From the NCBI GenBank assembly GCA_965242525.1, contig OZ251459.1:2144001-2208000 (forward strand): DNA of 64,000 bases, in the 5' to 3' direction. The stretch comes from an uncultured Candidatus Binatia bacterium (GTDB lineage Bacteria; Desulfobacterota; Binatia; UBA9968; JAJDTQ01). This document shows positions 2,646 through 41,100 of this stretch, piece after piece. Below the pieces are notes generated by a model. The model made no database searches. It was not told the DNA's origin and saw only the letters and a list, made by a program, of their open reading frames with translations. A program made the position numbers and the translations under genes. Every line of letters begins with the position of its first letter. Position 1 is the stretch's first letter.

Positions 2646-2672
2646 AAACGTCAATACATCGTATTGACGTTT
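2646..2672. promoter_or_regulatory. Perfect 12-bp inverted repeat, putative operator overlapping a -35-like TTGACG
   Basis: AAACGTCAATAC-atc-GTATTGACGTTT; TTGACG (2664-2669) N17 TATCCA upstream of GTG 2700. Confidence 0.5.
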
Positions 2673-2699
2673 ACCCGTGTTTCCTGTATCCAACTCATC

Positions 2700-3191
2700 G
2701 TGGCGAAGACTGGACAGTTGCAGGTTCGCGTCAGTGCGGACGAGAGGGAGCGTATCAGGCAGCGCGCGGAAAACGCGGGCATGACCGTATCCGAATGGGT
2801 GCTCAGGCAGTTGCTGCCGCCCGTCGAGGATGAGTTCCAGGGGCTTTGCCTCGGTCTTGCGGAGCGGCCCGAATTCCGCACCCACGCCCTGGCCCATCTC
2901 CATGACTTCTTCCGGCGTCTGGGCGAACGGGAATTCTCCCTGGCCGTGCGGTACCCGCCGCAGGTGGAGTTGGCGCCGTTCGAGGCAAATTACGTGGCGG
3001 CGATGGTGGAGTACGCCGCGGTCCTCAAGGGGGCGCCGATGCCGGATTGGACCCGGGACGTGCCGCCCCTGGAGACGCCCTGGTTCGCCGCCCCCGAACG
3101 GAGCTTGCGGCTGCATCTGCTCACGCAGTCGCCGCCGCCGTTCCGCCGGCGCAACCTGTTCGTGGACGCCAGCGTCGGGAGCCGGGCATGA
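2700..3191 (+). CDS. RHH/MobC-like N-terminal domain protein, putative antitoxin/regulator
   Basis: N-term AKTGQLQVRVSADERERIRQRAENAGMTVSEWV fits a ribbon-helix-helix pattern; stop overlaps the next ATG (ATGA). Confidence 0.6.
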   Translation: MAKTGQLQVRVSADERERIRQRAENAGMTVSEWVLRQLLPPVEDEFQGLCLGLAERPEFRTHALAHLHDFFRRLGEREFSLAVRYPPQVELAPFEANYVAAMVEYAAVLKGAPMPDWTRDVPPLETPWFAAPERSLRLHLLTQSPPPFRRRNLFVDASVGSRA

Positions 3192-3754
3192 CGCCGCTGG
3201 CCCGAGAGGACATCCTCCGTTTGCTGCAACGGCTGAACGACGAGTTGGCGCGCGATGGCGTGTGCGGGGAACTCTACCTGGTCGGGGGCGCGGTGTTGTG
3301 CCTTGCCTTCGACGCTCGCCGGACGACGGTGGACCTCGACGGGTTCTTTCGTCCATCGCGCGAGATGCGTACGGCCGCGCGACGAGTCGCCGCGGCCGAA
3401 GGGCTGAACGACGACTGGCTGAACGACAGCGCCAAGGGGTTTCTCAGTAGCAAGGGGGACTTCCGACAACATCTGGCGCTGTCCAACCTGCGCGTGCTCA
3501 CGGCCAGCCCGGAATACCTGCTGGCGATGAAGTGTCTGGCCATGCGCCTCGGCGGAGAGTTCCACGACCGGGAGGACGTCAGGTTCCTGCTCCGTTACCT
3601 GAACGTCACGCAGCAGGACGCAGCCCTGGAGATGGTGAGCCGCTACTACCCGCCGGAAAAGATCCCGCAGAAGACGTTCTACGCGCTCGCGGAAATGGTC
3701 GAAGACCTGGCGGCAGCACAGGGTGTTGCACCCGCTTCGACCGGCAAGTGTTGA
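3188..3754 (+). CDS. Nucleotidyltransferase-fold protein (DUF6036/AbiEii-like), putative toxin
   Basis: LYLVGGAVL..RRTTVDLD, WLND, YLLAMK, DREDV; translationally coupled to the upstream gene. Confidence 0.7.
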   Translation: MTPLAREDILRLLQRLNDELARDGVCGELYLVGGAVLCLAFDARRTTVDLDGFFRPSREMRTAARRVAAAEGLNDDWLNDSAKGFLSSKGDFRQHLALSNLRVLTASPEYLLAMKCLAMRLGGEFHDREDVRFLLRYLNVTQQDAALEMVSRYYPPEKIPQKTFYALAEMVEDLAAAQGVAPASTGKC

Positions 3755-3882: not shown

Positions 3883-5475
3883 ATGCGCTTCTTCAACACG
3901 TCGGGCCCCGTGGTCGCCGAAGACCACTACCGCATCCCGCCGCTGCAACGGGTGGATCTGGGCGAGGTCCTGGAGTTGATCCGGAGCAAGCGCTACTTCG
4001 TGCTCCATGCCCCCCGACAGACCGGCAAGACCTCCGTCCTGCTCGCCTTGCGGGACCTGCTGAACAGCGGCGCGGAGGGGGATTTCCGTTGCGTTTACGG
4101 AAACGTCGAGGCCGGTCAGGCTGCCCGGGAGGACGTGGGAGAGGCCATGCGCGCCGTCCTGGGCGAACTGGCGTCCAGGGCACTATCCTTGCACGACGAG
4201 TTCCCGGACGGCGCTTGGCCCGACATCCTCGCAAGGTCGGGTCCCCACGGAGCTCTCGGAGAGACCTTGACCCGCTGGTGTCGGGCGGACCCTCGCCCTC
4301 TGGTGCTGCTCATGGACGAGGTCGATTCCCTGGTGGGCGACACGCTCATCTCCGTGCTCCGCCAGTTGCGCGCAGGCTACGACCGGCGTCCCGAGGAGTT
4401 TCCGCACAGCGTGGTGTTGTGCGGCGTGCGTGACGTGCGCGACTACCGCATCCGGTCGAGCTCGGAGAACGCGGTGGTGGCCGGGGGCAGCGCGTTCAAC
4501 ATCAAGGCCGAATCCCTGCGCCTCGGGGACTTCACGGAAGCCGAAGTGCGCGCGCTGCTCAGCCAGCACACCACGGAGACCGGGCAGGCGTTCACCCCGG
4601 CGGCGCTGGATGCGGTCTGGCGGCAGACCCGCGGGCAGCCGTGGCTGGTCAACGCGCTCTGCCACCAGGCCTGCTTCCGCAACGAGGCCGGGCGCGACCG
4701 CTCCCACGCCATCACCCACGACGACGTCCTCGACGCCCAGGAACAACTCATCCTGCGCCGGGAGACCCACCTCGACCAACTCGCCGACAAGCTCCGGGAA
4801 GACCGCGTCCGCCGGGTGGTGGAGCCGCTGCTGACCGGCGGCGAGCCCCGGTACGGTTCGCGGGACCTGGAGTACGTGCGCGACCTGGGCTTGGTCACAC
4901 GGGAGTCCCCGCCGCGCATGGCCAACCCCATCTACGCCGAGGTGGTGCCGCGGGAACTGTCCCACGTGGTCCAGGACAGCCTGGAACAGGAAGTGGCCTG
5001 GTACGTGGACGCCGAGGGCGGCCTCGACATGGACAAGCTGCTCGCCGCCTTCCAGACGTTCTTCCGGGAACACTCGGAACACTGGCTGGGGCGCTTCGAC
5101 TACGCCGAAGCCGGTCCGCAACTCATCCTGCAGGCATTCCTCCAGCGGGTCGTGAACAGCGACGGCCGCGTCGAGCGGGAATACGGCCTGGGAAGGGGAC
5201 GAACCGACCTGCTCATCCTCTGGCCCCGGAAAGGCCGGGAAGCACCGGAACCCGCCGTGGACAAGTTCGTCATCGAGTGCAAGGTCCTGCACAAGAGCCT
5301 GGAGCAGAGCATCCGCGAAGGCCTGGAGCAGACCGCGGGCTACATGGACCGTTGCGCCGCCCAGGCCGGCCACTTGGTGGTCTTCGACCGAAACCCGGAC
5401 AGGCAGTGGGACGAAAAGATCTTCCGCCGGGACGAGTCCGTGGACGGGCGGGCGGTTACCGTGTGGGGGATGTAG
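3883..5475 (+). CDS. AAA-like P-loop ATPase with C-terminal PD-(D/E)XK-like domain
   Basis: Walker A HAPRQTGKT, Walker B LLMDEVD, C-term GRTDLLI...VIECK. Confidence 0.8.
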   Translation: MRFFNTSGPVVAEDHYRIPPLQRVDLGEVLELIRSKRYFVLHAPRQTGKTSVLLALRDLLNSGAEGDFRCVYGNVEAGQAAREDVGEAMRAVLGELASRALSLHDEFPDGAWPDILARSGPHGALGETLTRWCRADPRPLVLLMDEVDSLVGDTLISVLRQLRAGYDRRPEEFPHSVVLCGVRDVRDYRIRSSSENAVVAGGSAFNIKAESLRLGDFTEAEVRALLSQHTTETGQAFTPAALDAVWRQTRGQPWLVNALCHQACFRNEAGRDRSHAITHDDVLDAQEQLILRRETHLDQLADKLREDRVRRVVEPLLTGGEPRYGSRDLEYVRDLGLVTRESPPRMANPIYAEVVPRELSHVVQDSLEQEVAWYVDAEGGLDMDKLLAAFQTFFREHSEHWLGRFDYAEAGPQLILQAFLQRVVNSDGRVEREYGLGRGRTDLLILWPRKGREAPEPAVDKFVIECKVLHKSLEQSIREGLEQTAGYMDRCAAQAGHLVVFDRNPDRQWDEKIFRRDESVDGRAVTVWGM

Positions 5476-5508
5476 ATATCGAGAGGTCAACACAATGACC
5501 GACAGGTA

Positions 5509-5537
5509 TTGACACTTCACGGAGTATGGAGTATAGG
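5509..5537 (+). promoter_or_regulatory. Sigma70-type promoter for the low-GC operon
   Basis: TTGACA-N17-TATAGG; SD-like CAGGAG upstream of GTG 5586. Confidence 0.55.
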
Positions 5538-5585
5538 CCCCGACTAACTGATGCTTGGCCGCTTTCCCATGACAGGAGTTGTACC

Positions 5586-6620
5586 GTGACAGAACACCAC
5601 AAAATGCTCGAGGTGAATCAAATTGACTTCGACACTGAAAATCCCAGGATAAAAATGGCGTTGGAGAAATACGGTAGCCGTCTGAATGCCGAGCGCATTC
5701 ATTTTGCCTTGCGCTCCGCTACCGAAGGTTCCAGCGGTACTTCGTCCTACTCCAGCCTGAGAGATTCAATACGCTCTAGTCATGGGGTCATCGCGCCAAT
5801 CATCGTAAGACCTAAAGGCCACAGCTACGTCTGCATCGACGGAAATACCCGCCTGGCGATCTACAAACAGTTTCAAAGAGAAGAAATAGAAGGAGATTGG
5901 AGCAAAATCAAAGCCATTGTTCTCGATCATGCCGAACAGCGCGATATCGAAACCGTCCGTGTATCGGCACACCTGGTTGGCGCCCGAGAATGGCCTGCCT
6001 ACGAAAAGGCAAGGTATCTTCATTATCTCCGTAATCAGCAGTGTATGGATTACAGCGAAATGATAGCTCTCTGTGGCGGCAACAAAAACGAGATCGAACG
6101 TCAGATCGACGCATACCACGACATGAACTCATATTACCGAGATAAGGTGGACGACACCGCTTTTCGTATCGACCGTTATAGCGGATTCGTAGAACTTCAA
6201 CGGCCGCAGGTCAAGCAAGCCATTTTTGACGCAGAATTGGACCTAGAGGATTTTGGCGAGTGGATCCGCGATGGCAAAATATACCGCTTGGAGGATGTCC
6301 GCAAGTTGCCGAAAATCCTTCGAGACGATGAAGCCAAGCGGGTTTTCCTTGAAGGTGGACCTCGCTCAATAGAAGACGCCATGAAGGTTCTCGATCAGAG
6401 AACAGGGATCGGGGACTCTACGGACAAGGGGCAGACCAGAGTAGAACATGCCACCATCTACGAACTCGCGGACGCGCTCAGCCGGCGAATCAATGACATG
6501 CCCTATTCGCAAGTACGGGAATTGCGGGAGAAGACTGACGACGACACGGCAGATCAAATTACGCGATTAGAAGATCTATCCGTCAGGCTACGTAATTTGC
6601 TGAACGATGTCACAGAGTGA
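5586..6620 (+). CDS. ParB/Sulfiredoxin-like N-terminal domain protein (paralogue 1)
   Basis: ENPRI, PIIVR..YVCIDGNTRLA, HLVGAREWPAYEKA; start chosen from promoter and SD. Confidence 0.72.
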   Translation: MTEHHKMLEVNQIDFDTENPRIKMALEKYGSRLNAERIHFALRSATEGSSGTSSYSSLRDSIRSSHGVIAPIIVRPKGHSYVCIDGNTRLAIYKQFQREEIEGDWSKIKAIVLDHAEQRDIETVRVSAHLVGAREWPAYEKARYLHYLRNQQCMDYSEMIALCGGNKNEIERQIDAYHDMNSYYRDKVDDTAFRIDRYSGFVELQRPQVKQAIFDAELDLEDFGEWIRDGKIYRLEDVRKLPKILRDDEAKRVFLEGGPRSIEDAMKVLDQRTGIGDSTDKGQTRVEHATIYELADALSRRINDMPYSQVRELREKTDDDTADQITRLEDLSVRLRNLLNDVTE

Positions 6621-7050
6621 AACACACAGAAACCTGGTCCTCCAGGTCGCAAGAGCAATTGAGGACCGTTATGCCCAAATATCCGTCATTACCGATTTGC
6701 AGCAGAACCCTGGAGATACAGTGCCACCAATGATCTGCGGCCACCGCCCTGATGTTTACGCCTACGAAGAAGTACAGCGCCTCTGCATCGTTGCAGAGGC
6801 CAAGACCGATTCGGACCTCGACAATCTTCATACGCAACGCCAGTTGATGGCCTTTATCAACTATCTTAGCGACAGAGAAAAGAGCTTGTTCATCTTGTCG
6901 GTAAAGGGCACCAAGTCCGACCACGGGAAGACTCTGCTGCGGTTCACTCATCGACTTCTGGCTGTAAAGAACGTGCCTCTTGAAATTTTCGATGGTCATG
7001 ATTTCTGGTCCTTCAACCTACAGGACGAAACTACGTGGCATTTACTTTGA
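6607..7050 (+). CDS. Small PD-(D/E)XK-like nuclease-fold protein
   Basis: HRPDVYA...IVAEAKT...QL motif; overlaps both neighbours. Confidence 0.5.
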   Translation: MSQSETHRNLVLQVARAIEDRYAQISVITDLQQNPGDTVPPMICGHRPDVYAYEEVQRLCIVAEAKTDSDLDNLHTQRQLMAFINYLSDREKSLFILSVKGTKSDHGKTLLRFTHRLLAVKNVPLEIFDGHDFWSFNLQDETTWHLL

Positions 7051-8534
7051 GAAAACCACCCAGCCTGGTGGCAAGACACGAAGCCTATGCCTATCAGCTC
7101 GATGCTTTAAGAGCCGTAAAGGCGCTTCCTTATGCCGCCATATTCCACGAGCAAGGGCTCGGTAAAACAAAGATAGCTATTGACTTGATGTTGCTGTGGC
7201 TATCCAATGACTTAGTGGACACTGTATTTGTGATTACAAAAAAGAGCTTGGTTCAAAATTGGTTTGATGAACTTACCTCTCACTCATACGTAACTCCTCG
7301 AATTCTTTCCGATAACCGTCGCGAGAACAGCCTCGCACTAAACTCACCTGTATTGATCTATATTATGAACTACGAAGCAATCTCGGCAAATCTTCATTTG
7401 ATCGAGGATTTTCTCATTACCTGTAGGGTTGGCGCAATCCTTGACGAAAGTCACAAGATCAAAAACCCGCAAGCAAGGGCATCGATCTGCCTTCACTCTA
7501 TCGCCGACAAATTCTCGCGTAAGGTGATAATGACGGGAACGCCAGTGGCGAACCGTCCTTATGATCTTTGGTCGCAAGTCAAGTTTTTGGACGGAGGACA
7601 GTCTCTCGGGTCTTCTTTTGCTGATTTCAAAGCAACCTTTGATCTTCCCGGTCAGCCAAGTTGCACACAGGAATACAGTGAACGACTATCCAATATCATT
7701 GACAAGATTAGACATTTCTCGGTGCGAGAGACAAAGCGTACCGTAGAATTGAGCCTACCCGACAAGACAATACTAACTCATTTCGTGAACATGGCGCCTC
7801 GCCAAGCGGTAATATATGACTCCTACGTGACCGAAGCGGCCTACGAGATCAACCTTGGGGACGACCTGATTCTGGACAACGCCGAAGACATCCTGAAACG
7901 CCTGTTACGCCTGGTGGAGTGCGCCTCTAATCCTTTCTTGGTTGACAAGAGATACTCTGAGGTGCCAGGGAAGTTCTCCGAACTCTTGAAGCTTCTCCAG
8001 GAAATTGACTTACGAGCACATAAAGTGGTTTTGTGGACAGGGTTTGTTGATAATGTAGAATGGATAACTGCCCAATTGAAGGAGTTTTCGCCCTTGAAGG
8101 TTCATGGTCGTATGTCCATTGAGCAACGGAACCAGTCCATAAGCAGATTCAAAACCCACCAGAAACACCGTGTCTTTGTAGCCACGCCTGGCTCTGCAAA
8201 GGAAGGCTTAACTTTGACAGTAGCCAATCATGCTGTTTTCTACGATCGAAGCTTCAGTCTTGATGATTACCTCCAGGCGCAAGACCGAATTCATAGAATC
8301 TCTCAAACTGAAGACTGCTATGTACACAACTTGATCGCCAAACAAACCGTGGATGAGTGGGTGGATGCTTTGCTAAACGCAAAACATATCGCTGCACAGC
8401 TATCTCAAGGTGATATTTCTCAAGCTGAGTTTGAGTCTTCCTTTACCTTCAATTTAGCCGAAATACTGGCAGACATATTAACTTCCAGGTCGCTCGCTTC
8501 CAGGAGTCAGGAGAACGGAAAATGGCCGAAATAA
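7035..8534 (+). CDS. Compact SNF2/SWI2-family helicase/translocase
   Basis: EQGLGKT, ILDESHKIKN, MTGTP, EGLTLT, QAQDRIHRISQ. Confidence 0.88.
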   Translation: MAFTLRKPPSLVARHEAYAYQLDALRAVKALPYAAIFHEQGLGKTKIAIDLMLLWLSNDLVDTVFVITKKSLVQNWFDELTSHSYVTPRILSDNRRENSLALNSPVLIYIMNYEAISANLHLIEDFLITCRVGAILDESHKIKNPQARASICLHSIADKFSRKVIMTGTPVANRPYDLWSQVKFLDGGQSLGSSFADFKATFDLPGQPSCTQEYSERLSNIIDKIRHFSVRETKRTVELSLPDKTILTHFVNMAPRQAVIYDSYVTEAAYEINLGDDLILDNAEDILKRLLRLVECASNPFLVDKRYSEVPGKFSELLKLLQEIDLRAHKVVLWTGFVDNVEWITAQLKEFSPLKVHGRMSIEQRNQSISRFKTHQKHRVFVATPGSAKEGLTLTVANHAVFYDRSFSLDDYLQAQDRIHRISQTEDCYVHNLIAKQTVDEWVDALLNAKHIAAQLSQGDISQAEFESSFTFNLAEILADILTSRSLASRSQENGKWPK

Positions 8535-9565
8535 AGATCCTCAAGGAATCGGTGCAGGTAGTCAAGGAAGACTATGTGCATATCTACGAACTGAAGTTCC
8601 TGAAAGACAACCCTCGCGTATACGCGTGTACACATGAGTACCCGAATTTCGATGACTTGATGGAAGAGCAACAGCAAGACGTCATTTTCGATAAACTAAA
8701 GGAAGAGACGAGCGTCAAAAATCTCCGTCCTGAGATAGAACGGCATGGGGGCCTTATGGAGCCGATACTGGTTCGGCTCGATACACGCCAAGTCATTGAA
8801 GGCAATTCTCGCCTCGCTGTATACCGCCTGCTGTACGAAGGGACGAGGGAGAGCGACTGGGAATATATTCCGTGCAGCATGGTAAGTGGGCTAACAGAGC
8901 GTCAACAGGCCGCTTTTCTCAACGAAGTCCATGTGAAGGGCAAGACTCAATGGTCCCCCTACGAAAAGGCCAACTTCGCCTATGTCCGCAGGGAACGAGG
9001 TTGGAGTCTCAGTGACATCGCCGAACTTTTCGGAGAGTCAGTAAATACGATTAGAACCCGAGTAAAGGTCATTGAAACCATGAAAGGGAACTCGGATGGC
9101 ACAAAATCTCATTTCAGTCATTACGATGTACTAGTTCGAATACCTGCTATAGAGAAGGAGCTTTCTCAAAATGACGAGCTGCGCAATCTTCTTTACGCGG
9201 AGATCAAGAAGATCGATCCCAGAGACGACAAGAGCGCGAATGAGGACGAAACTGGCGAAGAGGACGAAAGCGGTTTCACCGCGCAGGAACTCAGGAGGAA
9301 ACTGCCCGCGATCATCGAGAAACCTAAGGTTTTGCGAAAATATATCGAAGGTGAAATAGATTTGGACGAAGGCTACCAGCGTGCGAAGATCAGCAACGCG
9401 GAAACCCGAGTTCGGAAAGCAAAAGGACTTTTGGAGGACGTTTCTCGAGAAGAGGTGACAAGGCTCGAACAGAATCGCTTCAATGCGTTCAAACAGGATG
9501 TACGGAGGATATCCCGCGTAGTGGAGCGCCTCAATGAGATCACAAAGGACCGTGAGACACCATGA
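8522..9565 (+). CDS. ParB/Sulfiredoxin-like N-terminal domain protein (paralogue 2)
   Basis: DNPRV, EPILV..VIEGNSRLA, HVKGKTQWSPYEKA followed by HTH-like WSLSDIAELFGESVNTIR. Confidence 0.72.
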   Translation: MAEIKILKESVQVVKEDYVHIYELKFLKDNPRVYACTHEYPNFDDLMEEQQQDVIFDKLKEETSVKNLRPEIERHGGLMEPILVRLDTRQVIEGNSRLAVYRLLYEGTRESDWEYIPCSMVSGLTERQQAAFLNEVHVKGKTQWSPYEKANFAYVRRERGWSLSDIAELFGESVNTIRTRVKVIETMKGNSDGTKSHFSHYDVLVRIPAIEKELSQNDELRNLLYAEIKKIDPRDDKSANEDETGEEDESGFTAQELRRKLPAIIEKPKVLRKYIEGEIDLDEGYQRAKISNAETRVRKAKGLLEDVSREEVTRLEQNRFNAFKQDVRRISRVVERLNEITKDRETP

Positions 9566-11202
9566 TTCCGTACAATGTACTGCTAGTCGAGCCCGGATAC
9601 TTCAACAAGTATCCGCCGCTTGGGTTAATGAAGTTGGCAGCATATCATGGCGCTCGCGGTCGTGGCGACCGGGTCCGCTTCGTCAAAGGTGAGGATCGTG
9701 AAGTGTCGCTGGAGTCGTGGGATCGAGTTTATGTAGCTACATTGTTCAGTTTTGAATGGGCGCGTACTGCCGCGGCAATTGATTTTGCCATCCGGACCGT
9801 GCGCGGCCAGACAGAACGGGTATTTGTAGGCGGCATCGCCGCATCGCTTATGCATGAGCACTTTGAGAACGAACCACGATGGTCGGGTGTCCGTTTTATT
9901 AAAGGACTATTGACTGATCCGCCGGCAGTTGCGCTGCGTTTATCAGCAGAAGATTGTGATTTTGGCTTTGACGACCACCAGGGACCCCCTATCGAGGAGT
10001 TGATTCCAGACTACTCCATTCTCGATCAGATCGAATATTCCTATCCTGTCCGAGACGCCTACTTTGGATACGCTTCACGTGGTTGCGTTCGGAAATGTGC
10101 GTTCTGTGGCGTTCCTAAACTGGAAGGCGCTCAGCGCGAAATGCCTTCCCTTACTTCCTTGGTCAAAGGAATCGAAGATGCATACGGACCCAAGAAGGAC
10201 CTGGTGTTGATGGATAATAACGTCACGGCATCCCTGCGATACAAGGAGATAATTGCTGAAATCCGGGATCTCGGCTTCACGCCAGGCGCTAGGCTCGAAC
10301 GCAGTGGGCGACCGCCGATCAAGCGACGCGTGGATTTCAATCAAGGCGTTGACGCGAGGATTCTTGCCAAGTCCCCGCTCTTTCTTAGGGAAATGGCAAA
10401 AATCTGTATCAGTCCTCTTCGTATCGCCTTTGACCACCTTGGGGTACGAAAAGTATATGAGACTTCTGTTCGAATGGCAGCACACCACGGAATCACCTCC
10501 TTATCAAACTATATGCTCTATAACTTTATGGACACTCCCGCAGATCTATACGACCGCATGCGTTTGAATATTACCCTCAATAACGACTTGGGCATCCGTA
10601 TTTGGTCATTTCCGATGCGTTATCAGCCAGTCTATCTCAAGGACCGTTCCCACGTAGGCAAAAATTGGACGAGATACCAACTACGCTCCTTTCAGATTAT
10701 GCTGCAGGCGACTCGAGGGGTTGTTAGCGGCAACCCTTCCTTCTTCATGCGGGCTTACGGAGAAGACAAACGCGACTTCGAACAACTTTTGAGTTTGCCA
10801 CATGCTTTCATTTTTCACCGTGATTACTACGAGAGAGGACCAGGACGAGGCATCCGAGATGACTATGAGACGGCACGACGGCGCCTTTCCAAGTCTCAAG
10901 AACAGGAATTGCTTGGTTTGCTGGAAGGCTCGGACAGTGTACCGGGTTTTCGAAGGGATCGGCTTCGCTCTTTGGTAGCCGACCCTGGCATTGACACATC
11001 TATTCGTAGAGTCATTCGATTTCACTTGCTGGATACAAAAGAGAAACCGCAGAACCCCATTCTGCCGCTCTTCCCCGACCTTAATCCTGATCCAGCTTTC
11101 CCTGACGACGATGAACTTGTCGAGGACGCCGGACTCTTTGATCACGAACACGCCTTGGAACAATCTGAAAAGGCCATCAAAGGAAACCATCATGGTCAAT
11201 GA
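9562..11202 (+). CDS. Radical SAM protein with B12-binding-like N-terminus
   Basis: RGCVRKCAFC (CxxxCxxC), N-term LLVEP..YPPLGLMKL, MDNN, DFNQGVDAR. Confidence 0.85.
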   Translation: MIPYNVLLVEPGYFNKYPPLGLMKLAAYHGARGRGDRVRFVKGEDREVSLESWDRVYVATLFSFEWARTAAAIDFAIRTVRGQTERVFVGGIAASLMHEHFENEPRWSGVRFIKGLLTDPPAVALRLSAEDCDFGFDDHQGPPIEELIPDYSILDQIEYSYPVRDAYFGYASRGCVRKCAFCGVPKLEGAQREMPSLTSLVKGIEDAYGPKKDLVLMDNNVTASLRYKEIIAEIRDLGFTPGARLERSGRPPIKRRVDFNQGVDARILAKSPLFLREMAKICISPLRIAFDHLGVRKVYETSVRMAAHHGITSLSNYMLYNFMDTPADLYDRMRLNITLNNDLGIRIWSFPMRYQPVYLKDRSHVGKNWTRYQLRSFQIMLQATRGVVSGNPSFFMRAYGEDKRDFEQLLSLPHAFIFHRDYYERGPGRGIRDDYETARRRLSKSQEQELLGLLEGSDSVPGFRRDRLRSLVADPGIDTSIRRVIRFHLLDTKEKPQNPILPLFPDLNPDPAFPDDDELVEDAGLFDHEHALEQSEKAIKGNHHGQ

Positions 11203-12700
11203 AGCAAGTGCTATGACGACGACGACACGGCAGTCACTTGACTCGATTGGCAGCGACATTCTCAACCTAATTACCCTTGGAATGTACAATAACCCTCTTG
11301 CCATCTATCGCGAGTACATCCAAAACGCTGCGGATGCGCTTGCACGTTCTGGAAGTCGCACTGACGGCCAAGTGGCAATCCATTTTGACAAGTCCGCATC
11401 GTCCATAACGATTCGAGACACCGGACCAGGCCTATCACCGAAGTCCGCAAGACGCGCACTTTTGCCCATTGCCAAGAGCGAAAAGGAATTCCAGGCTGAA
11501 CGCGGTTTTCGCGGCATCGGTCGCTTGTCCGGACTGGCTTTCGGCAAATCCGTCACCTTTCTTACGCGAGCACGAGGAGACCAGCCAGCAACAAGTGTCA
11601 AATGGGACGGACTGAAACTTCGGACAAACATTGACCAGCGCAAACCGATTGAACGGGTACTCAAGGAAGCTGTTACGGTAGAACCGCTAACAAGACCAGA
11701 TTTCCCGCCACACTTCTTCGAGGTCCAAGTGAACGGTATCGCGCGACACGCAGCGGGACTGATACTCAATCGAGACGCGGTCCGGACGTACATTGGCGAA
11801 GTATGTCCTGTCCCTATTTCCCGATCCTTCCCCTTTGCAACCCGGATCCTCGCTTTATTCCAAGCGGAAGCTCCTTTATTCGCGCTGAACCTTGTCTTGG
11901 ATGGCACCCCCGGCCCTGTCACACGCCCCTTTGACGACGCGATTCGATTTTCGGATGACAAGCTAGACAAGTTCACGGAGTTTCAGGAAATCAGGATCCC
12001 ATCGGTAGACCGAGAAGGACATGCGGCAGTTGGCTGGATTGCACATTCAAATTATTTGGGCGCTATTCCCAAGGAACACGCCATTCGAGGTGTTCGAGCA
12101 CGTGCGGGCAACATACAGATTGGGAACGAAGCTGTCTTTGATCACCTTTTTTCTGACGATCGCTTTAATCGCTGGTGTGTTGGCGAACTCCATATCATGG
12201 ACTCGCGTATCATCCCCAATGCTCGCCGTGACTACTTTGAGCCGGGTCCACACATCCGAAACCTGGAGAACCAGCTTATCGCTGTATTTCGAGAAGTAGT
12301 TGCGCGATGCAGGAAGGCATCCGCAGAACGCAACAGGGAACGAAGGTTGCAGTCCGGATTGCGGGAAATCGAGGATGCTTATCACTTGGCACAATCCGGC
12401 TATTTGTCCATGGGAGATTCTCAAGCCTTGATCGCGCGCGGTCTCAACCGTCTCCAAGACTTCCGGAACAACTGGAGCGAGATGAACGCCTGTGCAAAGA
12501 CGGAATTGGAAAACCTTGAATCGAACCTTCAAAAATTCCAGCCTTCACATAGTCATCTACCCGTGGCTAATTTGTCAAAGTTGGAAGCGGCAACGTACAG
12601 AAAGCTTTTTCACGCTTTGGTAGAGACGTCCCCTTCCCCGCGCATTGCCAAAGAAACAATCGAAGCTGTCCTTGTCCACCTACAGCGCAGGGTCGCATGA
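11192..12700 (+). CDS. GHKL (HSP90/MORC-like) ATPase
   Basis: REYIQNAADA, IRDTGPG, GFRGIGRLSG; ATG 11192 overlaps the radical SAM stop. Confidence 0.82.
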   Translation: MVNEASAMTTTTRQSLDSIGSDILNLITLGMYNNPLAIYREYIQNAADALARSGSRTDGQVAIHFDKSASSITIRDTGPGLSPKSARRALLPIAKSEKEFQAERGFRGIGRLSGLAFGKSVTFLTRARGDQPATSVKWDGLKLRTNIDQRKPIERVLKEAVTVEPLTRPDFPPHFFEVQVNGIARHAAGLILNRDAVRTYIGEVCPVPISRSFPFATRILALFQAEAPLFALNLVLDGTPGPVTRPFDDAIRFSDDKLDKFTEFQEIRIPSVDREGHAAVGWIAHSNYLGAIPKEHAIRGVRARAGNIQIGNEAVFDHLFSDDRFNRWCVGELHIMDSRIIPNARRDYFEPGPHIRNLENQLIAVFREVVARCRKASAERNRERRLQSGLREIEDAYHLAQSGYLSMGDSQALIARGLNRLQDFRNNWSEMNACAKTELENLESNLQKFQPSHSHLPVANLSKLEAATYRKLFHALVETSPSPRIAKETIEAVLVHLQRRVA

Positions 12701-12713
12701 GAGGAAACGGCGT

Positions 12714-14195
12714 TCAGAGTTTCTCTACGCGGCTTGCCCTCGAACGCAGAAAGTTGAAATCGGCGTCGTCACCGACATCCGGCATCGCGAGCAAGCGTTC
12801 GATAAAAGTCTCCGGCTGACGCTGCTTCCGCTGTGTCTTCAAGCCGCCCCGCCATTCCAGCAGGACGACTTCTTCTCGAAGCTGTTCGCCGGTCACCGTC
12901 GAAGGGCGTGTCCGAAAGAGGTCGATGCCCATGACCCGGTAGTGCAACGACCGGGCCAAGTCGGCCAGGAGTCGGCCCGTGGGGATACGGACCCGCAGAT
13001 ACGACGCCTGGTCGCCGACCACGTAGGCGAGCCTGGCCCCCGGCTTGAGGACGGCGCGGAGCGACGCGAGGTGTTTCGCCATGCCGCCGAAGTAGAGCCG
13101 CGTGACGCGCGGATACAACCGCTCGAAGCCGGAGGTCTTGCCCAACTCGATACGGCGCTTCTCGATGGCTTCGGCGATGTCCCGTATCTCGGCATGGTCG
13201 GCAACCTCACGATCGTCCGTGTCCGCCTTATAGACGCCCCGGGTGTTGGACCGGATCAGGTTCCGTTTCATGGACCGCAATTCCTGCCGGTCGCGCACCA
13301 GTCCCAGGATGACGGACTCCAACCGTGTGGTGCGCGTGTAGTCCTTTTCGTTGGGATACGGCGGGGAGGTGATCACGGTATCGACGGACCCCGGCTCCAG
13401 CGCTCGATGGATCGCGCGGGCGTCCGCCTCCACGACCCGGGACGGCGCGTCCGTCCGGCCCTTGAGGAGTTCCAGGTCGCCGACGATGGTTCGGAAGCAG
13501 TCGAGCCAGGCGTCGACGGCCGGCGCGTCGTCCTTGATCCGGCCCACGCCGACTTCGGGACCGAACTTCAGGTTCCCGATGCGCAGCACCAGCGCGTTGG
13601 CAAGCGCCAGGCGGCCATAGGGCCGCAGTTGCGGCCGGTCGTGCCGGTCCATGGCGTCCAGCAGGGTCAGCGTCTTGTGGAGGGGCAGCGGACTGATGGA
13701 GTCCTTCAGCAGCAGTTTCGACCGGTCGGGGGGAAGACCCTGCAACACGGGTGGTCCGCTCCCGTTCGCGGCGAAGAGCGGAAGCCCCGCGGCCTCCCGG
13801 ATGCCCTGCCGTTCCAGCGTCCTTCGCGCCGCCGCCGCAACCCGACGGGAATAGTCCGAAAGCGCCGCCGGGTCGGCCGACCAATCGACCTTCACCGAAC
13901 TCGCAAAAGACCCCATGGGGTTCGACTCGACGCCCACGCTGGGAATGCCGAGTTTCTTGCACTCCACCAACGTCGTGCCCGTGCCGCAGAAGGGGTCCAG
14001 GACCGTATGGGAGCGGTCCACGCCGAGCCGTTCCATGTAGTCCCTTACCAAGTGGGGCGGGAACGACAGGACGAACCGATACCATTGATGGGCCGGACGG
14101 TCTTCAGGCCGCAGCCTGTTCCGGTCGCCTTGGGTTCCGCCGGTGTCGGCAACCGCGGCCCGGCCGCTGCGCGTATCGGAAATCAGATCCGCCAT
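12714..14195 (-). CDS. Amino (probably N4-cytosine) DNA methyltransferase, alpha motif order, no adjacent cognate REase
   Basis: Motif I LDPFCGTGTT precedes motif IV ITSPPYPN; AGGA SD before ATG 14195. Confidence 0.85.
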   Translation of the reverse strand: MADLISDTRSGRAAVADTGGTQGDRNRLRPEDRPAHQWYRFVLSFPPHLVRDYMERLGVDRSHTVLDPFCGTGTTLVECKKLGIPSVGVESNPMGSFASSVKVDWSADPAALSDYSRRVAAAARRTLERQGIREAAGLPLFAANGSGPPVLQGLPPDRSKLLLKDSISPLPLHKTLTLLDAMDRHDRPQLRPYGRLALANALVLRIGNLKFGPEVGVGRIKDDAPAVDAWLDCFRTIVGDLELLKGRTDAPSRVVEADARAIHRALEPGSVDTVITSPPYPNEKDYTRTTRLESVILGLVRDRQELRSMKRNLIRSNTRGVYKADTDDREVADHAEIRDIAEAIEKRRIELGKTSGFERLYPRVTRLYFGGMAKHLASLRAVLKPGARLAYVVGDQASYLRVRIPTGRLLADLARSLHYRVMGIDLFRTRPSTVTGEQLREEVVLLEWRGGLKTQRKQRQPETFIERLLAMPDVGDDADFNFLRSRASRVEKL

Positions 14196-14259
14196 CGGAG
14201 TTCCTGGCCGAACGGGTCGAGGGAGTCCAGCCTTTCCATGGCAACACGTGCGAGAACCG

Positions 14260-14973
14260 TCAGTCCACCGGAACGCAGGTGACCTCCACCCGTCCGTCAC
14301 CGTGCAGTCGAACCGCGTTGACCGTGCCGGCGTAGGTCGGAGACCCCGAGTAGTAGGCGGGCACCCCGTCTTCGCCCACGCGCACGGCGCGGTTCCAGTG
14401 GCCCAGAGCCACGTAGTCGGCGCGGCTGGCGGCCAAGTTCTCCTGCCGGATCAGCCACGAGCCCAGCAGCAGGCCCGCCCGGGGCGCGTCCTCCACGTAA
14501 TGGCCGTGGGCCACCGCCAACTGCCAGCGGGTGCGCCGCTCGGGCGGCTCGGGCAGGGGCATCATGTCCAGGTAGTCCACGTGGGGACGGCCCCATACCT
14601 CCAGGTCCAGCTCGGGGAAGCCGCTCCGGTCCTCGGTGAGGCCCAGCACGCGCACGTTACCCGCGCCGGCGAACTCGGACCGGCGATAGACCGAATCAGG
14701 AGTCAGGGGGTCGTGGTTGCCCGGCAGGACCACGATGGGGAGGCCGGAGTCGGCCATGACTCCGGCCGCGTCCTCGATGAACCGGGGACCCTGGCGGTTG
14801 TGGTCGAAGGTGTCCCCCGCCAGGATCACCAAGTCGGCGCCCTGGGCGCTCGCAATCGAGAGCACCTGTTGCAGCACCGGCAGGTTGCCGGAATCGTCTT
14901 CGTTCAGGACGCTGTCCGCGCCCAGGTGGAGGTCCGATGTGTGGACGACGAGGACTTCACGCGGTGCGTTCAT
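14260..14973 (-). CDS. Metallophosphoesterase, SbcD/Mre11-like
   Basis: SDLHLG, AGDTFD, PGNHD, AHGH, LGHWN, YSGSP. Confidence 0.8.
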   Translation of the reverse strand: MNAPREVLVVHTSDLHLGADSVLNEDDSGNLPVLQQVLSIASAQGADLVILAGDTFDHNRQGPRFIEDAAGVMADSGLPIVVLPGNHDPLTPDSVYRRSEFAGAGNVRVLGLTEDRSGFPELDLEVWGRPHVDYLDMMPLPEPPERRTRWQLAVAHGHYVEDAPRAGLLLGSWLIRQENLAASRADYVALGHWNRAVRVGEDGVPAYYSGSPTYAGTVNAVRLHGDGRVEVTCVPVD

Positions 14974-15175
14974 GCTGGCGGTTTCTCCCTTCCCGGTGCG
15001 CCGCGGCCTGCGGGGACGCGGCTCCGCGGGCCGCAAGCGCGTCCGTCCCGGGGGCCTGGACCCGCCGGACACCGAGGGCCTGCCGGACGGAGGCGCCCTC
15101 TTCCAACGGCATGTGGTCGGGAGCCCTGGCGCCGGCTGCGGGACGGAAACCGCTGCGGAAGGCCTGCGGCCCGGG

Positions 15176-20525: not shown

Positions 20526-20608
20526 ACGGAGGCTCGCCGGTCATCCGGCCGGGCGGCAACGCGCGTCCGGGCGGAAGCCGCTGCCGGGGGCCGTCAGGCG
20601 CCCACCCG

Positions 20609-21883: not shown

Positions 21884-21965
21884 GTTCCTCTCCCTCTCCG
21901 GCGGCCCGCGCGCACCGGGGCCGCCCGACGGTCACCGCCGGAAGGGCGCCGGGTGGGTCTCCAGC

Positions 21966-37266: not shown

Positions 37267-37536
37267 ATGGAAAACATGGAAGACAGAGAGCTATTGAAAC
37301 GCATCGAATTGAATCCAGGGGTGATGGGAGGGAAGGCCGTCATCAAGGGCACACGTTTGACGGTGGAACACATCCTCAACCTGCTCGCCCACGGCGAGAC
37401 CGTTGAAAAGATCACGGCGGAGTACGACGGAATCGCCCAAGAAGACGTTTTGGCCTGCGTCCTGTTTGCCGCGAAAGCCCTGGGGGACACCACCTTCGCA
37501 CCGTTGGCTGCAGAGACGCCTGGATGCGGTTCCTGA
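37267..37536 (+). CDS. DUF433 family antitoxin
   Basis: RIELNPGVMGGKAVIKGTRLTVE. Confidence 0.88.
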   Translation: MENMEDRELLKRIELNPGVMGGKAVIKGTRLTVEHILNLLAHGETVEKITAEYDGIAQEDVLACVLFAAKALGDTTFAPLAAETPGCGS

Positions 37537-37877: not shown

Positions 37878-38034
37878 CGAGGCGCGTCCGATCGGATTTG
37901 CCTGAGCCGTTGACGGCGTGCCGGGGCCGAGCCGTCCCGCGCAACGCGGCGCCATCTCTTCGTACCCGCCCGGCGAGGCAGGGGTAGCCGCCGCTCACCG
38001 GCCGGCGGTCTCGCCGCCGGCCGGTGAAAACCTC

Positions 38035-38700: not shown

Positions 38701-38910
38701 CCGTCCGGGGCTCCCGCCCAGTCAGGCACGACTGCGTGGGATGCTGTTGCTCAGCCGGCCTCCCTTGATGAGCCTCTTCCCCGCCAAGCACGGCTACATC
38801 CTTACCCTGGCCGCCACGTGGGCGGGAAGCATCGGAGGGCAGGGGATAGCTGCCAACGGACCGTCTCCTTGACACGACTCGAAATGTAAAGCAGGATTTC
38901 ACAACCGAAA

Positions 38911-40538: not shown

Positions 40539-40550
40539 GGGCCACCGAAG

Positions 40551-41077: not shown

Positions 41078-41100
41078 GGACAGGATCGAGAAATCCGGCA

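Follow-up and report, generated by a model that had tools for sequence, protein, structure and literature searches.

An exchangeable nuclease and motor module beside a mobile radical SAM–GHKL gene pair: a candidate anti-invader system

Two DNA-modification systems, Dpd and Dnd/Ssp, offer the closest described parallels to the gene cassette analyzed here. Dpd carries out 7-deazaguanine DNA modification through DpdA, DpdB, and DpdC, accompanied by the helicase/nuclease arm DpdD–K, and both systems follow a pattern in which a constant chemistry enzyme is combined with swappable nuclease arms. DndB and DpdB belong to one family, the DGQHR proteins. In Dnd/Ssp (DndABCDE with DndFGH or other arms), the restriction arms are exchangeable, and one report describes them as functionally decoupled (PMC10853773). 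The cassette that we describe lies in a 64,000-nt window, the whole stretch of DNA that was analyzed. Like Dpd, it is a multi-gene, island-borne unit that encodes ParB-superfamily proteins and an SNF2 helicase, with the DGQHR type found only in sister loci, where DpdB-like DGQHR proteins stand just before the radical SAM (rSAM) gene. Its SNF2 protein matches the helicase part of DpdE models (PADLOC, 5e-37), and a modification core with a helicase/nuclease arm would be a shared logic. In contrast to Dpd, the six ORFs include no tRNA-guanine transglycosylase (DpdA-type) domain and match no Dpd models beyond DpdE, for which the NCBIfam score of 34.9 falls short of the cut-off of 500, and the rSAM enzyme is not QueE, having no QueE match and another two-domain architecture. 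To our knowledge, Dpd has no GHKL partner. The layout is analogous to that of Dnd/Ssp in joining an Fe-S chemistry enzyme to a DNA-associated ATPase, and sister loci encode a DndB-like DGQHR protein, whereas homologues of DndA, C, D, and E are absent among the six ORFs and the ATPase is of the GHKL rather than the SMC-like type.

No system in PADLOC-DB v2.0.0 (2023) matches the core of the cassette, and a full-text literature search found no named system combining the six parts; within these two sources, the status of undescribed candidate system given by the initial annotation stands. The sole text found that names a conserved Hsp90-like and radical SAM neighborhood in an immune context (10.64898/2026.10.19.760177) presents an "HSP90 chaperone + Radical SAM enzyme" three-gene neighborhood with a PAACC effector. 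It does so in one sentence without accessions, so that a shared family with the pair described here is only a possibility, and its section on the neighborhood makes no mention of a ParB/SNF2/PD-ExK block.

The six ORFs are co-oriented on the plus strand (5586–12700), begin with GTG, ATG, GTG, ATG, ATG, and ATG, and overlap their neighbors by 14, 16, 13, 4, and 11 nt in order, in agreement with the 4–16 nt initially annotated. The longest ORF versions would begin at 5526 for gene 1 and 10991 for gene 6; alignment of homologues supports a predicted gene 1 start at 5586, and for gene 6 the internal ATG at 11192 was taken as the start, which gives the 11-nt overlap with gene 5. The entire cassette occupies a low-GC island (5476–12713; GC 0.499 versus 0.667 in the remaining window), confirming a contrast that had first been judged by eye, and 500-nt windows range from 0.44 to 0.56 within the island and from 0.63 to 0.74 outside it. 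On the left the island is bordered by a high-GC AAA ATPase gene with its stop at 5475, and on the right by a convergent high-GC DNA methyltransferase gene ending at 12714. Searches of the island flanks found no direct or inverted repeats of note, and the 64,000-nt window contains no tRNA genes. A plus-strand motif that had been annotated as a promoter, TTGACA-N17-TATAGG (5509–5537), can be read in the sequence ahead of gene 1, with TTGACA at 5509–5514, a 17-nt spacer, and TATAGG at 5532–5537. The motif is present, but its function as a promoter is unsupported because promoter-like sites between 5300 and 13000 are no commoner than in shuffled sequence (6 versus 6.3 ± 2.4); the site was not reported by a consensus promoter scan, which demands T at the final −10 position. 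A Shine-Dalgarno-like AGGAG (5574–5578) lies 7 nt ahead of the GTG of gene 1.

The first four genes encode a putative nuclease-motor block. Gene 1 (5586–6620, 344 aa) is a ParB/Srx-like protein in which an HTH-like segment comes after DxxNPR and DGNTRL motifs; its matches to ParB models are weak (ParB_N 1.6e-3, noc 1e-4, PRTRC ParB 2e-4), its family alignment contains invariant positions, and the family profile matches SbnI (5uje; E 0.028), which we take to have the ParB/Srx fold. Gene 4 (8522–9565, 347 aa) carries an EGNSRL motif and an HTH, the latter of the Sigma70_r4_2 type (3e-4). ParB_N was matched by three of 23 members of the gene 4 family (best 0.016), and profile comparison with the gene 1 family (hhalign probability 99.9, E 1.5e-31, 246 columns) identifies the second ParB/Srx-like protein, at the sequence level, as a paralogue of the first. 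Between them, gene 2 (6607–7050, 147 aa) encodes a small protein of predicted PD-ExK nuclease fold with D30, P48-D49, E64-x-K66, and Q79 invariant in a 19-sequence alignment; the AHJR-like REase family (PF18743) was matched weakly by five of these 19 proteins (best E 0.0029), and the window's own protein had no Pfam match. Gene 3 (7035–8534, 499 aa) is an SNF2-family ATPase/translocase (SNF2-rel_dom, PF00176, 5e-30; Helicase_C 5e-16; ResIII 8e-9) that consists of the helicase core only, without a fused nuclease, and carries GLGKT, DESH, and QAQDRIHR motifs. It shares this core with Zorya ZorD, DISARM DrmD, and Hma (PADLOC ZorD 2e-47, DrmD 5e-20, HmaA 2e-16), but the match is confined to the helicase region, as it is for the DpdE models, and NCBIfam scores fall far under their cut-offs (ZorD 79 versus 1500, DrmD 45 versus 950). 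The other Zorya and DISARM component models are unmatched by the six ORFs, none of which has a fused nuclease.

Gene 5 (9562–11202, 546 aa) encodes the radical SAM enzyme. Its Pfam match to the rSAM family is weak (1.6e-3), and the cluster motif C175-x3-C179-x2-C182 is invariant across 62 relatives. The AF2 model (pLDDT 89.6, pTM 0.89) predicts an N-terminal Rossmann (B12-binding-like) domain, an rSAM barrel, and a C-terminal helical domain with a conserved acidic tail, the last two being peculiar to this family. The same arrangement of a Rossmann/B12-like domain followed by a CxxxCxxC barrel is found in B12-binding-domain rSAM enzymes and methylthiotransferases (TsrM, MgmA, OxsB, AprD4, CysS, TokK; MiaB, RimO). 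Foldseek searches of the PDB returned E values from 5.6e-10 (TsrM) to 1e-6, with MgmA, MiaB, OxsB, and AprD4 also among the matches; TM scores of 0.39–0.48 and identities of 12–17% make the likeness an architectural one that is silent on substrate. The "B12-like" label in the initial annotation is therefore supported at the level of predicted fold architecture, and cobalamin binding is putative; sub-threshold matches to the B12-binding family PF02310 occur in four of 19 distant relatives. No second conserved cysteine triad of the MiaB/RimO auxiliary-cluster type was found in the alignment of 62 relatives, gene 5 has no TRAM domain, and it scores below the cut-off of every NCBIfam and Pfam subfamily. 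Distant homologues occur in phages, without a GHKL gene and among DNA-modification genes, as in a Bacteroides LoVEphage where the homologue lies near PAPS reductase and Dam.

Gene 6 (11192–12700, 502 aa) encodes a GHKL ATPase (HATPase_c_3, 1e-11) whose closest solved-structure relatives by sequence are HtpG/Hsp90 N-domains (family profile versus HtpG, 1.3e-13). Bergerat-fold motifs are invariant in its family (E41, N45, D48; D76-x-G78; G105...G110), and its middle and C-terminal region is conserved and belongs to no named family. It shares the Bergerat fold and a conflict-system context with GHKL/MORC-type ATPases (MzaB of Mza, TmtA of Tiamat, and the BbrUII/HgiDII family); the BbrUII/HgiDII restriction enzyme resembles it weakly in the N-terminal part (2.3e-6; 26.5 bits versus a cut-off of 550). 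It matches neither the MzaB nor the TmtA model of PADLOC and has no fused nuclease. All six domain assignments of the initial annotation were borne out by Pfam, hhalign, invariant residues, the HtpG profile, or fold, and the catalytic sequence motifs of the rSAM, GHKL, SNF2, and PD-ExK proteins are intact.

We compared the cassette with 80 related genome loci, drawn from over ten phyla and retrieved via the rSAM protein; the constancy of the rSAM gene is partly by construction because the loci were collected through it, and the reverse direction of the pairing was tested by plasmid searches with GHKL and ParB1 queries only. In 77 of the 80 loci the GHKL gene immediately follows the rSAM gene. 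The complete six-gene set occurs in 40, and the ParB–nuclease–SNF2–ParB block in 41, where it stands upstream of the rSAM-GHKL pair as in the window (31), downstream (9), or inverted (1), so that the annotated genes do co-occur, but not as a fixed six-gene operon. Because ParB2 accompanies the SNF2 block, not the rSAM gene, in the nine rearranged loci, no ParB-like protein is a fixed rSAM partner. Other modules, which take the place of this block or occur alongside it, include HerA with a GHKL paralogue (11 loci, 10 of them with a NurA-like c15 gene), PIN_8 with a GHKL paralogue (10), DGQHR-HEPN (11), GHKL with c19, a protein without an assigned family (8), and a short DGQHR/DpdB-like protein immediately upstream of the rSAM gene (13). 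A recognised accessory module is present in 70 loci. Five of the 10 loci without one lie on short contigs or near a contig end (L019, L038, L066, L072, L077); the remaining five are flanked by long stretches of sequence, and two of these (L009, L059) also lack GHKL. Two or more GHKL-partner pairs occur in 30 of the 80 loci. The GHKL paralogues are homologous to each other (24–33% identity over about 380–460 residues), and neighbors across the family are rSAM (79), PIN_8 (12), HerA (11), and c19 (10). Among the six genes, gene 5 shows the highest conservation (median identity 67%, range 58–75%), followed by SNF2 (57%), ParB1 (54%), GHKL (48%), PD-ExK (43%), and ParB2 (41%), a gradient that fits fixed catalytic chemistry with faster-evolving recognition or effector parts. 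The functional unit is thus not a six-gene operon: its core is rSAM and GHKL, to which the ParB/PD-ExK/SNF2/ParB block is joined as an exchangeable module. The initial annotation had grouped both ATPases with the nuclease as an effector; this suits the SNF2, PD-ExK, and ParB proteins, but GHKL, which travels with rSAM, probably does not belong to the nuclease arm.

The cassette is a compositionally foreign island, horizontally acquired and spread. The rSAM tree disagrees with taxonomy, intermingling Acidobacteriota, Nitrospirota, Chloroflexota, Pseudomonadota, Latescibacterota, Binatota, Gemmatimonadota, Actinomycetota, Spirochaetota, and others. On its well-supported branches alone, the ParB/SNF2 label changes at least 10 times and the HerA label at least four times. 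In PLSDB, each of the 12 records that cover 80% or more of the GHKL query also carries the rSAM gene, as does each of the seven with a ParB1 homologue. Conjugative plasmids such as pNL1 carry the system, and pNL1 and p187_1 encode a DGQHR protein directly upstream of the rSAM gene (TIGR03187 1.7e-40, PADLOC DpdB 1e-16).

We tentatively propose, with somewhat less than even confidence, that the cassette is a modular, horizontally mobile system against invaders, in which rSAM and a dedicated GHKL partner mark DNA and the attached modules restrict unmarked DNA. A GHKL dimer would, with ATP, clamp or scan DNA and position the rSAM enzyme, which would mark the host's own DNA covalently via a 5'-deoxyadenosyl radical; that the enzyme installs or reads such a mark was already the inference of the initial annotation. 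The module would serve as a restriction arm that patrols DNA and cuts where the mark is missing, here with two paralogous ParB-like DNA-binding NTPase-fold proteins, the SNF2 translocase, and the small PD-ExK nuclease; in other genomes the same core would be wired to alternative nuclease/motor arms. This Dnd/Dpd-like reading, including its immunity role and DNA substrate, is drawn by analogy from the constant pair with several swappable modules and from the DGQHR proteins right upstream of the rSAM gene. The conservation gradient, the horizontal spread, the intact catalytic motifs, and the setting of the phage homologues among DNA-modification genes agree with it. If true, it would add a widespread, undescribed bacterial anti-invader system built around an unnamed rSAM enzyme and its Hsp90-like partner. 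We know of no comparable radical SAM enzyme that modifies DNA, and a sequence-specific DNA modifier would not usually be as highly conserved as gene 5 unless a partner holds the specificity.

The pairing of GHKL paralogues with PIN, HerA, and c19 can equally be read as a GHKL switch joined to alternative effectors, and the main rival, which we consider possible but rather unlikely, is an abortive-infection-like system in which an NTP-driven GHKL switch detects a cue from an invader and turns on the enzyme encoded alongside it. The rSAM protein would then be one of several effectors (with PIN, NurA-like/HerA, and c19), damaging or altering nucleic acid, for instance by radical chemistry on DNA or by modifying RNA or ribosomal targets in the manner of MiaB/RimO, with no marking of self DNA. 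The homology of the paralogues and the many loci with multiple GHKL-partner pairs are consistent with such a switch, as are the passages of a 2026 preprint that read Hsp90-like NTPases as immune-system switches and the presence of RNA-modifying MiaB and protein-modifying RimO among the nearest folds. Against it, separate nuclease/motor modules would be redundant if rSAM itself kills, DGQHR/DpdB-like partners are typical of DNA-modification systems, the MiaB/RimO-type auxiliary cysteines are not conserved, and rSAM is the slowest-evolving component whereas arms-race effectors are often variable. The very high conservation of the rSAM enzyme across phyla would suit a universal small substrate. 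The prokaryotic viperins (pVips) are rSAM defence enzymes that act through nucleotides. Another rSAM system of this type, Ophion (rSAM, PHP, and PRTase), is described in a published text (10.1101/2025.09.30.679545), and OxsB and AprD4, with small-molecule substrates, are among the fold matches to gene 5. That rSAM converts a nucleotide or other metabolite into a viperin-like chain terminator or signal, with GHKL and the ParB/SNF2/nuclease arm responding or acting in parallel, nevertheless seems improbable: no viperin/pVip model in Pfam, NCBIfam, or PADLOC matches, the N-terminal Rossmann domain sets the architecture apart, the 80 loci hold no conserved nucleotide-metabolism partner (kinase, PRTase, or similar), and every partner is a DNA-handling protein.

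The strict adjacency of rSAM and GHKL, whose genes overlap or lie close together, would also suit an enzyme-substrate or enzyme-chaperone pair, and the top fold matches include the protein- or amino-acid-modifying B12-rSAM enzymes MgmA (MCR glutamine methylase) and TsrM. Maturation of GHKL or a ParB-like protein into an active defence factor is, however, the least probable of the readings considered, as the GHKL family has no standout invariant target residue beyond the ATPase motifs and the phage rSAM homologues occur without GHKL. We see only a slim prospect that the system serves mobile-element housekeeping (partition, maintenance, repair, or counter-defence by self-modification) rather than immunity. 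ParB-like proteins and SNF2 ATPases also act in partition and repair, conjugative plasmids carry the system, and DNA modification by the phage homologues would be counter-defence. On the other hand, nucleases (PD-ExK, PIN_8, HEPN, and the NurA-like gene) and motors of the restriction type predominate among the partners, defence systems typically show such shuffling of modules and such patchy occurrence, and neither the window domains nor the 80 loci place ParA, replication genes, or conserved mobility genes within the unit. Most flanks of 25 sampled loci are housekeeping genes, as the housekeeping role would allow. In favor of the anti-invader reading, an integrase, transposase, or defence-type gene is among the two nearest ORFs per side in nine of the 25 by raw count, and in the window the neighbors of the island are an AbiEii/NikA-like pair, the AAA ATPase, and the methyltransferase, which is type II-like.

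The six genes of the cassette, as read from the open reading frames, lie on the forward strand and overlap in turn by 14, 16, 13, 4 and 11 nt: a ParB-like gene (ParB1; gene 1, 5586–6620, its GTG start at 5586 backed by homologue alignment), a small putative PD-(D/E)XK-type nuclease gene (gene 2, 6607–7050), an SNF2 helicase gene (gene 3, 7035–8534), a second ParB-like gene (ParB2; gene 4, 8522–9565), a radical SAM (rSAM) enzyme gene (gene 5, 9562–11202) and a GHKL ATPase gene (gene 6, 11192–12700, an internal ATG at 11192 being taken as the start). The mechanically longest frames begin at 5526 for gene 1 and 10991 for gene 6. The cassette fills a sharp compositional island (5476–12713) with a GC content of 0.499, compared with 0.667 in the remaining window. 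Both the chain of co-oriented genes with overlaps of 4–16 nt and the drop in GC content had been described in the initial annotation, and both held. The promoter that it placed ahead of the cassette fared less well: the motif is present on the forward strand (TTGACA at 5509–5514, 17 nt, TATAGG at 5532–5537), but a consensus promoter scan did not return the site, and the six promoter-like sites within 5300–13000 are no excess over shuffled sequences (6.3 ± 2.4), so that we treat the promoter as a reading of the sequence and not as a supported feature. An AGGAG stands 7 nt upstream of the gene 1 GTG. A repeat search found no terminal or bordering repeats at the island borders, and there is no tRNA gene in the window and no integrase gene flanking the island. 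A 22-nt direct repeat inside the island (5989–6010 and 8949–8970, 86% identical) is the DNA trace of a W-P/S-x-Y-E-K-A motif common to the two ParB-like paralogues.

We assign gene 5 to the radical SAM superfamily from its CxxxCxxC motif and a partial TIM barrel in the structural model, which also predicts an N-terminal Rossmann/B12-type domain ahead of the barrel. All 62 relatives keep the three cysteines of the motif (C175, C179 and C182), and Pfam family PF04055 matches at 19.1 bits, under its cut-off of 29.5. A first model, based on 17 close homologues, was discarded for its low confidence (pLDDT 56.4); deepening the alignment to 62 sequences with 50%-identity representatives yielded an AF2 model with a pLDDT of 89.6 and a pTM of 0.89, which matched radical SAM structures with a Foldseek probability of 1.00. 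These comprised TsrM (5.6e-10), MgmA, MiaB, OxsB, AprD4, CysS, TokK and RimO, at TM 0.39–0.48 and 12–17% identity, and the matches to TsrM, MgmA, OxsB, CysS and TokK spanned 430–660 alignment columns. A sequence-profile search of the PDB returned only marginal matches to RimO/TM_1862 (E 0.04–0.06), and a BFVD fold search returned only generic phage B12-like radical SAM and MTTase proteins. PF02310 occurs in 21% of the members of an Atlas cluster neighbouring the rSAM protein and as sub-threshold matches in 4 of 19 distant relatives. AprD4, which has a similar architecture, works without cobalamin, and the architecture of gene 5 therefore does not decide cobalamin use. The CxxxCxxC triad supplies the sole invariant cysteines of the 62 sequences, to which the close family adds C282; because there is no conserved second cysteine triad, gene 5 is not a methylthiotransferase, and it gave no TRAM match in Pfam and only 18.6 bits to the NCBIfam RimO model (cut-off 357).

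The C-terminal tail of the rSAM protein, modeled at a pLDDT below 50 over residues 519–532, is variable except for an acidic motif, V-E-D-A-G-L-F-D-H (residues 520–528; window 11119–11145), that is nearly invariant in the close family and through which a partner could dock. Relatives of 680–820 aa carry C-terminal extensions without a Pfam match. Local HMMs detected no full-length fusion of the rSAM protein to GHKL, ParB1, ParB2, PD-(D/E)XK, HerA or two accessory proteins of related loci (c15 and c19) among 269 proteins; the lone match was a short one, of the C-terminal part of the GHKL profile to a 237-aa representative of the rSAM family (P0220).

The ATP-binding motifs of gene 6 (N-box ExxxNxxD, G1 box DxGxG and G2 box GxxGxG) identify it as a GHKL (Bergerat-fold) ATPase. 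HATPase_c_3 matched with 1e-11 and 45.3 bits (cut-off 25), and residues E41, N45, D48, D76, G78, G105 and G110 are invariant across 22 sequences. The family profile also matched the N-domains of HtpG/Hsp90 (1.3e-13), confined to profile positions 17–137. We rejected an Hsp90/HtpG chaperone proper, as gene 6 has no PF00183 match and scores 28.6 vs 371 against the NCBIfam HtpG model; a bona fide HtpG at one related locus (L017) matches PF00183 with 4e-115. The remaining ~350 residues of gene 6 matched no named family in an Atlas search, and a lead to Morc6_S5 in the C-terminal part was at chance level (0.77). Predictions of a complex between rSAM residues 1–546 and GHKL residues 1–450 (0.00, 0.46 and 0.01 in three runs) weigh neither way.

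Among the other four genes, gene 3 encodes a plain SNF2 helicase core. Both lobes are recognized (PF00176, 5e-30, 105 bits, cut-off 24.9; Helicase_C PF00271, 5e-16, 59.3 bits) and motifs I, II and VI are intact in the translation (GLGKT, DESH and QAQDRIHR), as predicted for a member of the SNF2 family; its PADLOC and NCBIfam matches to ZorD, DpdE and DrmD cover the helicase part only and fall far under the family cut-offs. Genes 1 and 4 are paralogous (hhalign probability 99.9, E 1.5e-31), each with an HTH behind its DxxNPR and (D/E)GN(T/S)RL boxes, and the DGNTRL, EGNSRL and NPR motifs are invariant in the family alignments. Matches to ParB families are weak but consistent: gene 1 matches ParB_N (1.6e-3, 18.9 bits, under the cut-off of 26.3), noc (1e-4) and SbnI (5uje; E 0.028), and in the gene 4 family 3 of 23 members match ParB_N and 5 of 23 an HTH family. 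Gene 2 is a predicted nuclease; its invariant D30, P48-D49 and E64-x-K66 (19 sequences) read as a PD-(D/E)XK signature, and 5 of the 19 family members weakly match the archaeal-Holliday-junction-resolvase-like REase family (best 0.0029), while the window protein has no significant Pfam match. The ParB and PD-(D/E)XK calls rest on motifs and profiles and not on curated thresholds. The six domain assignments of the initial annotation hold, those of SNF2, GHKL and radical SAM firmly and those of the two ParB proteins and PD-(D/E)XK as probable.

The rSAM family is very large and has no name. Among 8000 candidates at least 7082 clusters at 90% identity matched with E ≤ 1e-3, the best 120 of them 68–97% identical to gene 5; at 50% identity there were 1965 such clusters, 352 of them with E ≤ 1e-30. 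In a collection with one genome per species, relatives are encoded at no fewer than 484 places. The 80 best of these served as the related loci and represent more than 10 phyla, including Acidobacteriota, Nitrospirota, Chloroflexota, Pseudomonadota, Latescibacterota, Binatota, Gemmatimonadota, Actinomycetota, Spirochaetota, Poribacteria and Armatimonadota. Their gene content, determined by tblastn with the window proteins and by independent ORF clustering with concordant results, identified the rSAM–GHKL pair as the constant element. A GHKL gene lies directly 3′ of the rSAM gene in 77 of the 80 loci, and 40 loci contain the full set of six. The six-gene operon proposed as the unit in the initial annotation is accordingly too narrow. 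The ParB/PD-(D/E)XK/SNF2/ParB block occurs in 41 loci: upstream, in the window order, in 31, downstream of the GHKL gene in nine and inverted in one; where the block has moved, ParB2 accompanies SNF2 and not rSAM. Across the 40 six-gene loci, median identity falls from 67% for rSAM through 57% for SNF2, 54% for ParB1, 48% for GHKL and 43% for PD-(D/E)XK to 41% for ParB2.

The constancy of rSAM in the 80 loci is partly by construction because they were retrieved through the rSAM protein; the reverse direction was probed by two plasmid searches only. In PLSDB, all 12 records with a GHKL query coverage of 80% or more, and all seven with a ParB1 homologue, hold an rSAM gene. At two loci (L009 and L059) tblastn detected no GHKL gene within 10 kb of the rSAM gene; the former has a SMODS (CD-NTase-like) gene and a gene for an AAA_16-TPR protein in its flanks.

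Loci lacking the block carry other modules beside the rSAM–GHKL pair. Within the best 80, a HerA-like ATPase (8.6e-40 to PDB 7f6d) with a GHKL paralogue occurs at 11, and 10 of these 11 also encode c15, a 380-aa protein that we guess to be NurA-like from its place beside HerA and its two DGS motifs. A PIN_8 protein (3e-21) with a GHKL paralogue was found at 10 loci, and a GHKL paralogue with c19, an uncharacterized 336-aa protein, at eight; PDB profile searches with c15 and c19 gave nothing usable. Short DGQHR proteins (TIGR03187, 1.7e-40; PADLOC DpdB, 1e-16) are encoded directly upstream of rSAM at 13 loci, and a long DGQHR protein that includes a HEPN domain at 11. Neither the block nor any of these modules was recognized at ten of the 80 loci. 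Short contigs or a nearby contig end account for the position of five of them (L019, L038, L066, L072 and L077), and the other five, which include the two without GHKL, have long flanks. On a maximum-likelihood tree of rSAM, which cuts across taxonomy, the module label shifts repeatedly: on well-supported branches alone, no fewer than 10 times in the case of the ParB/SNF2 block and no fewer than four in that of HerA.

Two or more GHKL paralogues occur in 30 of the best 80 loci. By partner they fall into classes associated with rSAM (79), PIN (12), HerA (11) and c19 (10), which are 24–33% identical over ~380–460 residues. Paralogues within one locus are no more alike than those from different loci, and so give no sign of shared specificity domains.

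The pair is also found on mobile elements. Twelve PLSDB plasmids, for the most part from rhizobia and sphingomonads and in seven cases conjugative, have the gene order 'DGQHR domain protein / radical SAM protein / ATP-binding protein'. No blastn match to the rSAM gene was obtained in 5,426 complete E. coli genomes. Distant rSAM homologues (21–40% identity) occur in 15 phage records without GHKL; that of a Bacteroides LoVEphage lies near a PAPS reductase gene and Dam. In Marinitoga camini virus 1 (L083, record 37383–41209), HerA and an exonuclease gene adjoin, on the opposite strand, a gene for a 360-aa rSAM homologue (29% identity, E 3e-38), an arrangement that echoes the NurA-like/HerA module of 11 bacterial loci. 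Two loci, from a Gammaproteobacteria MAG (L040) and a Nitrospira MAG (L041), encode identical rSAM proteins and have equal tblastn identities for all six genes, reflecting either a very recent transfer or one contig binned twice.

The initial annotation had presented the cassette as a candidate undescribed system, and PADLOC-DB v2.0.0 (2023) matched no named system. No model in it matched gene 5 or gene 2; gene 6 matched only REase_II (0.0097), ParB1 weakly PDC-M38A (2.4e-6) and PD-Lambda-5_A (0.0067), ParB2 PD-Lambda-5_A (4.7e-5) and SNF2 generic helicase models. In Pfam, PADLOC and NCBIfam the six ORFs matched no transglycosylase domain and, apart from DpdE, no model of Dpd (DpdA transglycosylase, DpdB and DpdC), and the likeness of gene 3 to DpdE is confined to the helicase core. 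They likewise lack matches to the DndC/DndD/DndE and SspBCD families; Zorya and DISARM are matched by the helicase core alone, with scores far under the cut-offs, and the GHKL protein matched neither Mza nor Tiamat. Ophion, which combines radical SAM, PHP and PRTase, is a different radical SAM system. A full-text search of openly available literature found no described system with this combination; the 'HSP90 + Radical SAM' neighbourhood of a preprint (10.64898/2026.10.19.760177) may be the same pair. We conclude that the finding is real and widespread and, as far as checked, undescribed. We rate the cassette as a candidate multi-gene defence of the modification/restriction type built from known folds, with a real chance that its chemistry is categorically new. 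The mechanism offered in the initial annotation, in which the radical SAM enzyme would install or read a DNA or nucleotide modification and the ATPases and nuclease would form the effector, is plausible.

Any mechanism has to accommodate an obligate enzyme–ATPase pair, a steep conservation gradient, horizontal mobility, DNA nucleases and motors that are nearly constant companions and freely exchanged, and frequent immediate neighbours of the DndB/DpdB family. The Dnd/Ssp and Dpd systems mark host DNA through a chemistry module that is conserved and restrict unmarked DNA through helicase/nuclease modules that vary. This is the nearest known logic to an rSAM–GHKL pair with swappable modules, and for that reason we adopt a modification–restriction reading. 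We tentatively propose that the GHKL protein would act as an ATP-driven DNA clamp bringing the rSAM enzyme to DNA, that the enzyme would write a radical-derived mark, and that the two ParB-like proteins, SNF2 and the PD-(D/E)XK nuclease would form the restriction arm. In its more specific form, which we regard as doubtful, the pair would be a new kind of DNA modifier, an ATP-driven, Hsp90-like clamp that delivers a B12-type radical SAM enzyme to DNA. The covalent mark, for example a methyl or other carbon-linked group, would be set at an unactivated base or sugar carbon, as a self label for swappable arms (ParB/SNF2/PD-(D/E)XK, NurA-like/HerA/GHKL, PIN/GHKL and DGQHR-HEPN).

The strongest rival makes GHKL a switch and rSAM, PIN, NurA-like/HerA and c19 its alternative effectors. 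It takes the four partner classes of GHKL at face value, but separate nuclease/motor modules join rSAM–GHKL in 70 of the 80 loci and would be superfluous with rSAM itself as the killer; we consider this rival unlikely. Radical SAM enzymes are known in immunity chiefly as viperins, which act on free nucleotides, and a viperin-like small-molecule product of rSAM is a less likely reading; viperin/pVip identity was rejected for gene 5, which has no PADLOC match, for which neither Pfam nor NCBIfam returned a viperin family, and whose two-domain architecture differs from the single-domain viperin-type core of pVip. Maturation of a protein by rSAM, as by MgmA, one of its fold matches, is also less likely, as is a non-immune function serving mobile elements.

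If the more specific form of our reading is true, this would be the first DNA mark written by a radical SAM enzyme for self/non-self discrimination, and prokaryotic immunity would gain a new, widespread branch of the 'GHKL-coupled enzyme' type. The coupling of a radical SAM enzyme to proteins that handle DNA would point to new nucleic-acid chemistry, which could be a DNA modification or a radical attack on invader DNA. Since the family spans more than 10 phyla, a function found here would annotate thousands of genes, and one conserved core with at least five alternative nuclease/motor arms is a natural experiment separating 'marking' from 'cutting'. The pairing of GHKL paralogues with rSAM, PIN, HerA and c19 suggests a general GHKL-coupled design principle, one related to ATPases of the MORC and Hsp90 types, which take part in the defence of eukaryotic genomes as well.

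The genes beside the island include several of defence type. Just upstream, two overlapping forward-strand ORFs (2664–3754) encode a NikA-like/DUF6290 ribbon-helix-helix protein (7e-10) and an AbiEii nucleotidyltransferase (1.2e-5), likely a type IV toxin–antitoxin pair. They are followed by a gene for a 530-aa AAA_22/AAA_16 ATPase by Pfam (3883–5475, forward strand), flank-like in its high GC content and ending ~110 nt before gene 1. It gave no PADLOC match. Because none of the 80 related loci has an equivalent, it does not belong to the system. Downstream, a convergent gene for a 528-aa N6/N4 DNA methyltransferase (12714–14300, reverse strand; SPPY motif; 4e-35 to PADLOC MTase_II) has its end 13 nt away from the gene 6 stop, and its start overlaps a calcineurin-like phosphoesterase gene (14260–15072, reverse strand). 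Neither has a counterpart in the 80 loci by tblastn. We rejected the methyltransferase as the cognate modification gene, given its flank-like GC content (0.66) and a homologue in 0 of 80 loci; it looks like an orphan or a separate modification unit.

We sampled 25 of the 47 related loci with complete flanks, taking the two nearest ORFs per side (100 ORFs). Integrase or transposase genes adjoin five loci and defence-type genes (AAA_14/DUF4143, SMODS with AAA_16-TPR, HsdM, NERD and BglII) five; one or the other adjoins nine of the 25 as a raw count, and most other flanks are housekeeping genes. At four of the 80 loci (L066, L070, L078 and L079) a DUF5131 protein is encoded near the pair, matching the NCBIfam 'radical SAM mobile pair protein A' (2.4e-20) and the PADLOC candidate models PDC-M41B (8e-100) and PDC-M30B (1.3e-99). 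In the window itself, a HemN-like radical SAM gene and genes for SAH hydrolase and SAM synthetase lie 7–10 kb downstream (19371–23141); these are high-GC housekeeping genes, and it is probably by chance that they stand close to an island that consumes SAM.
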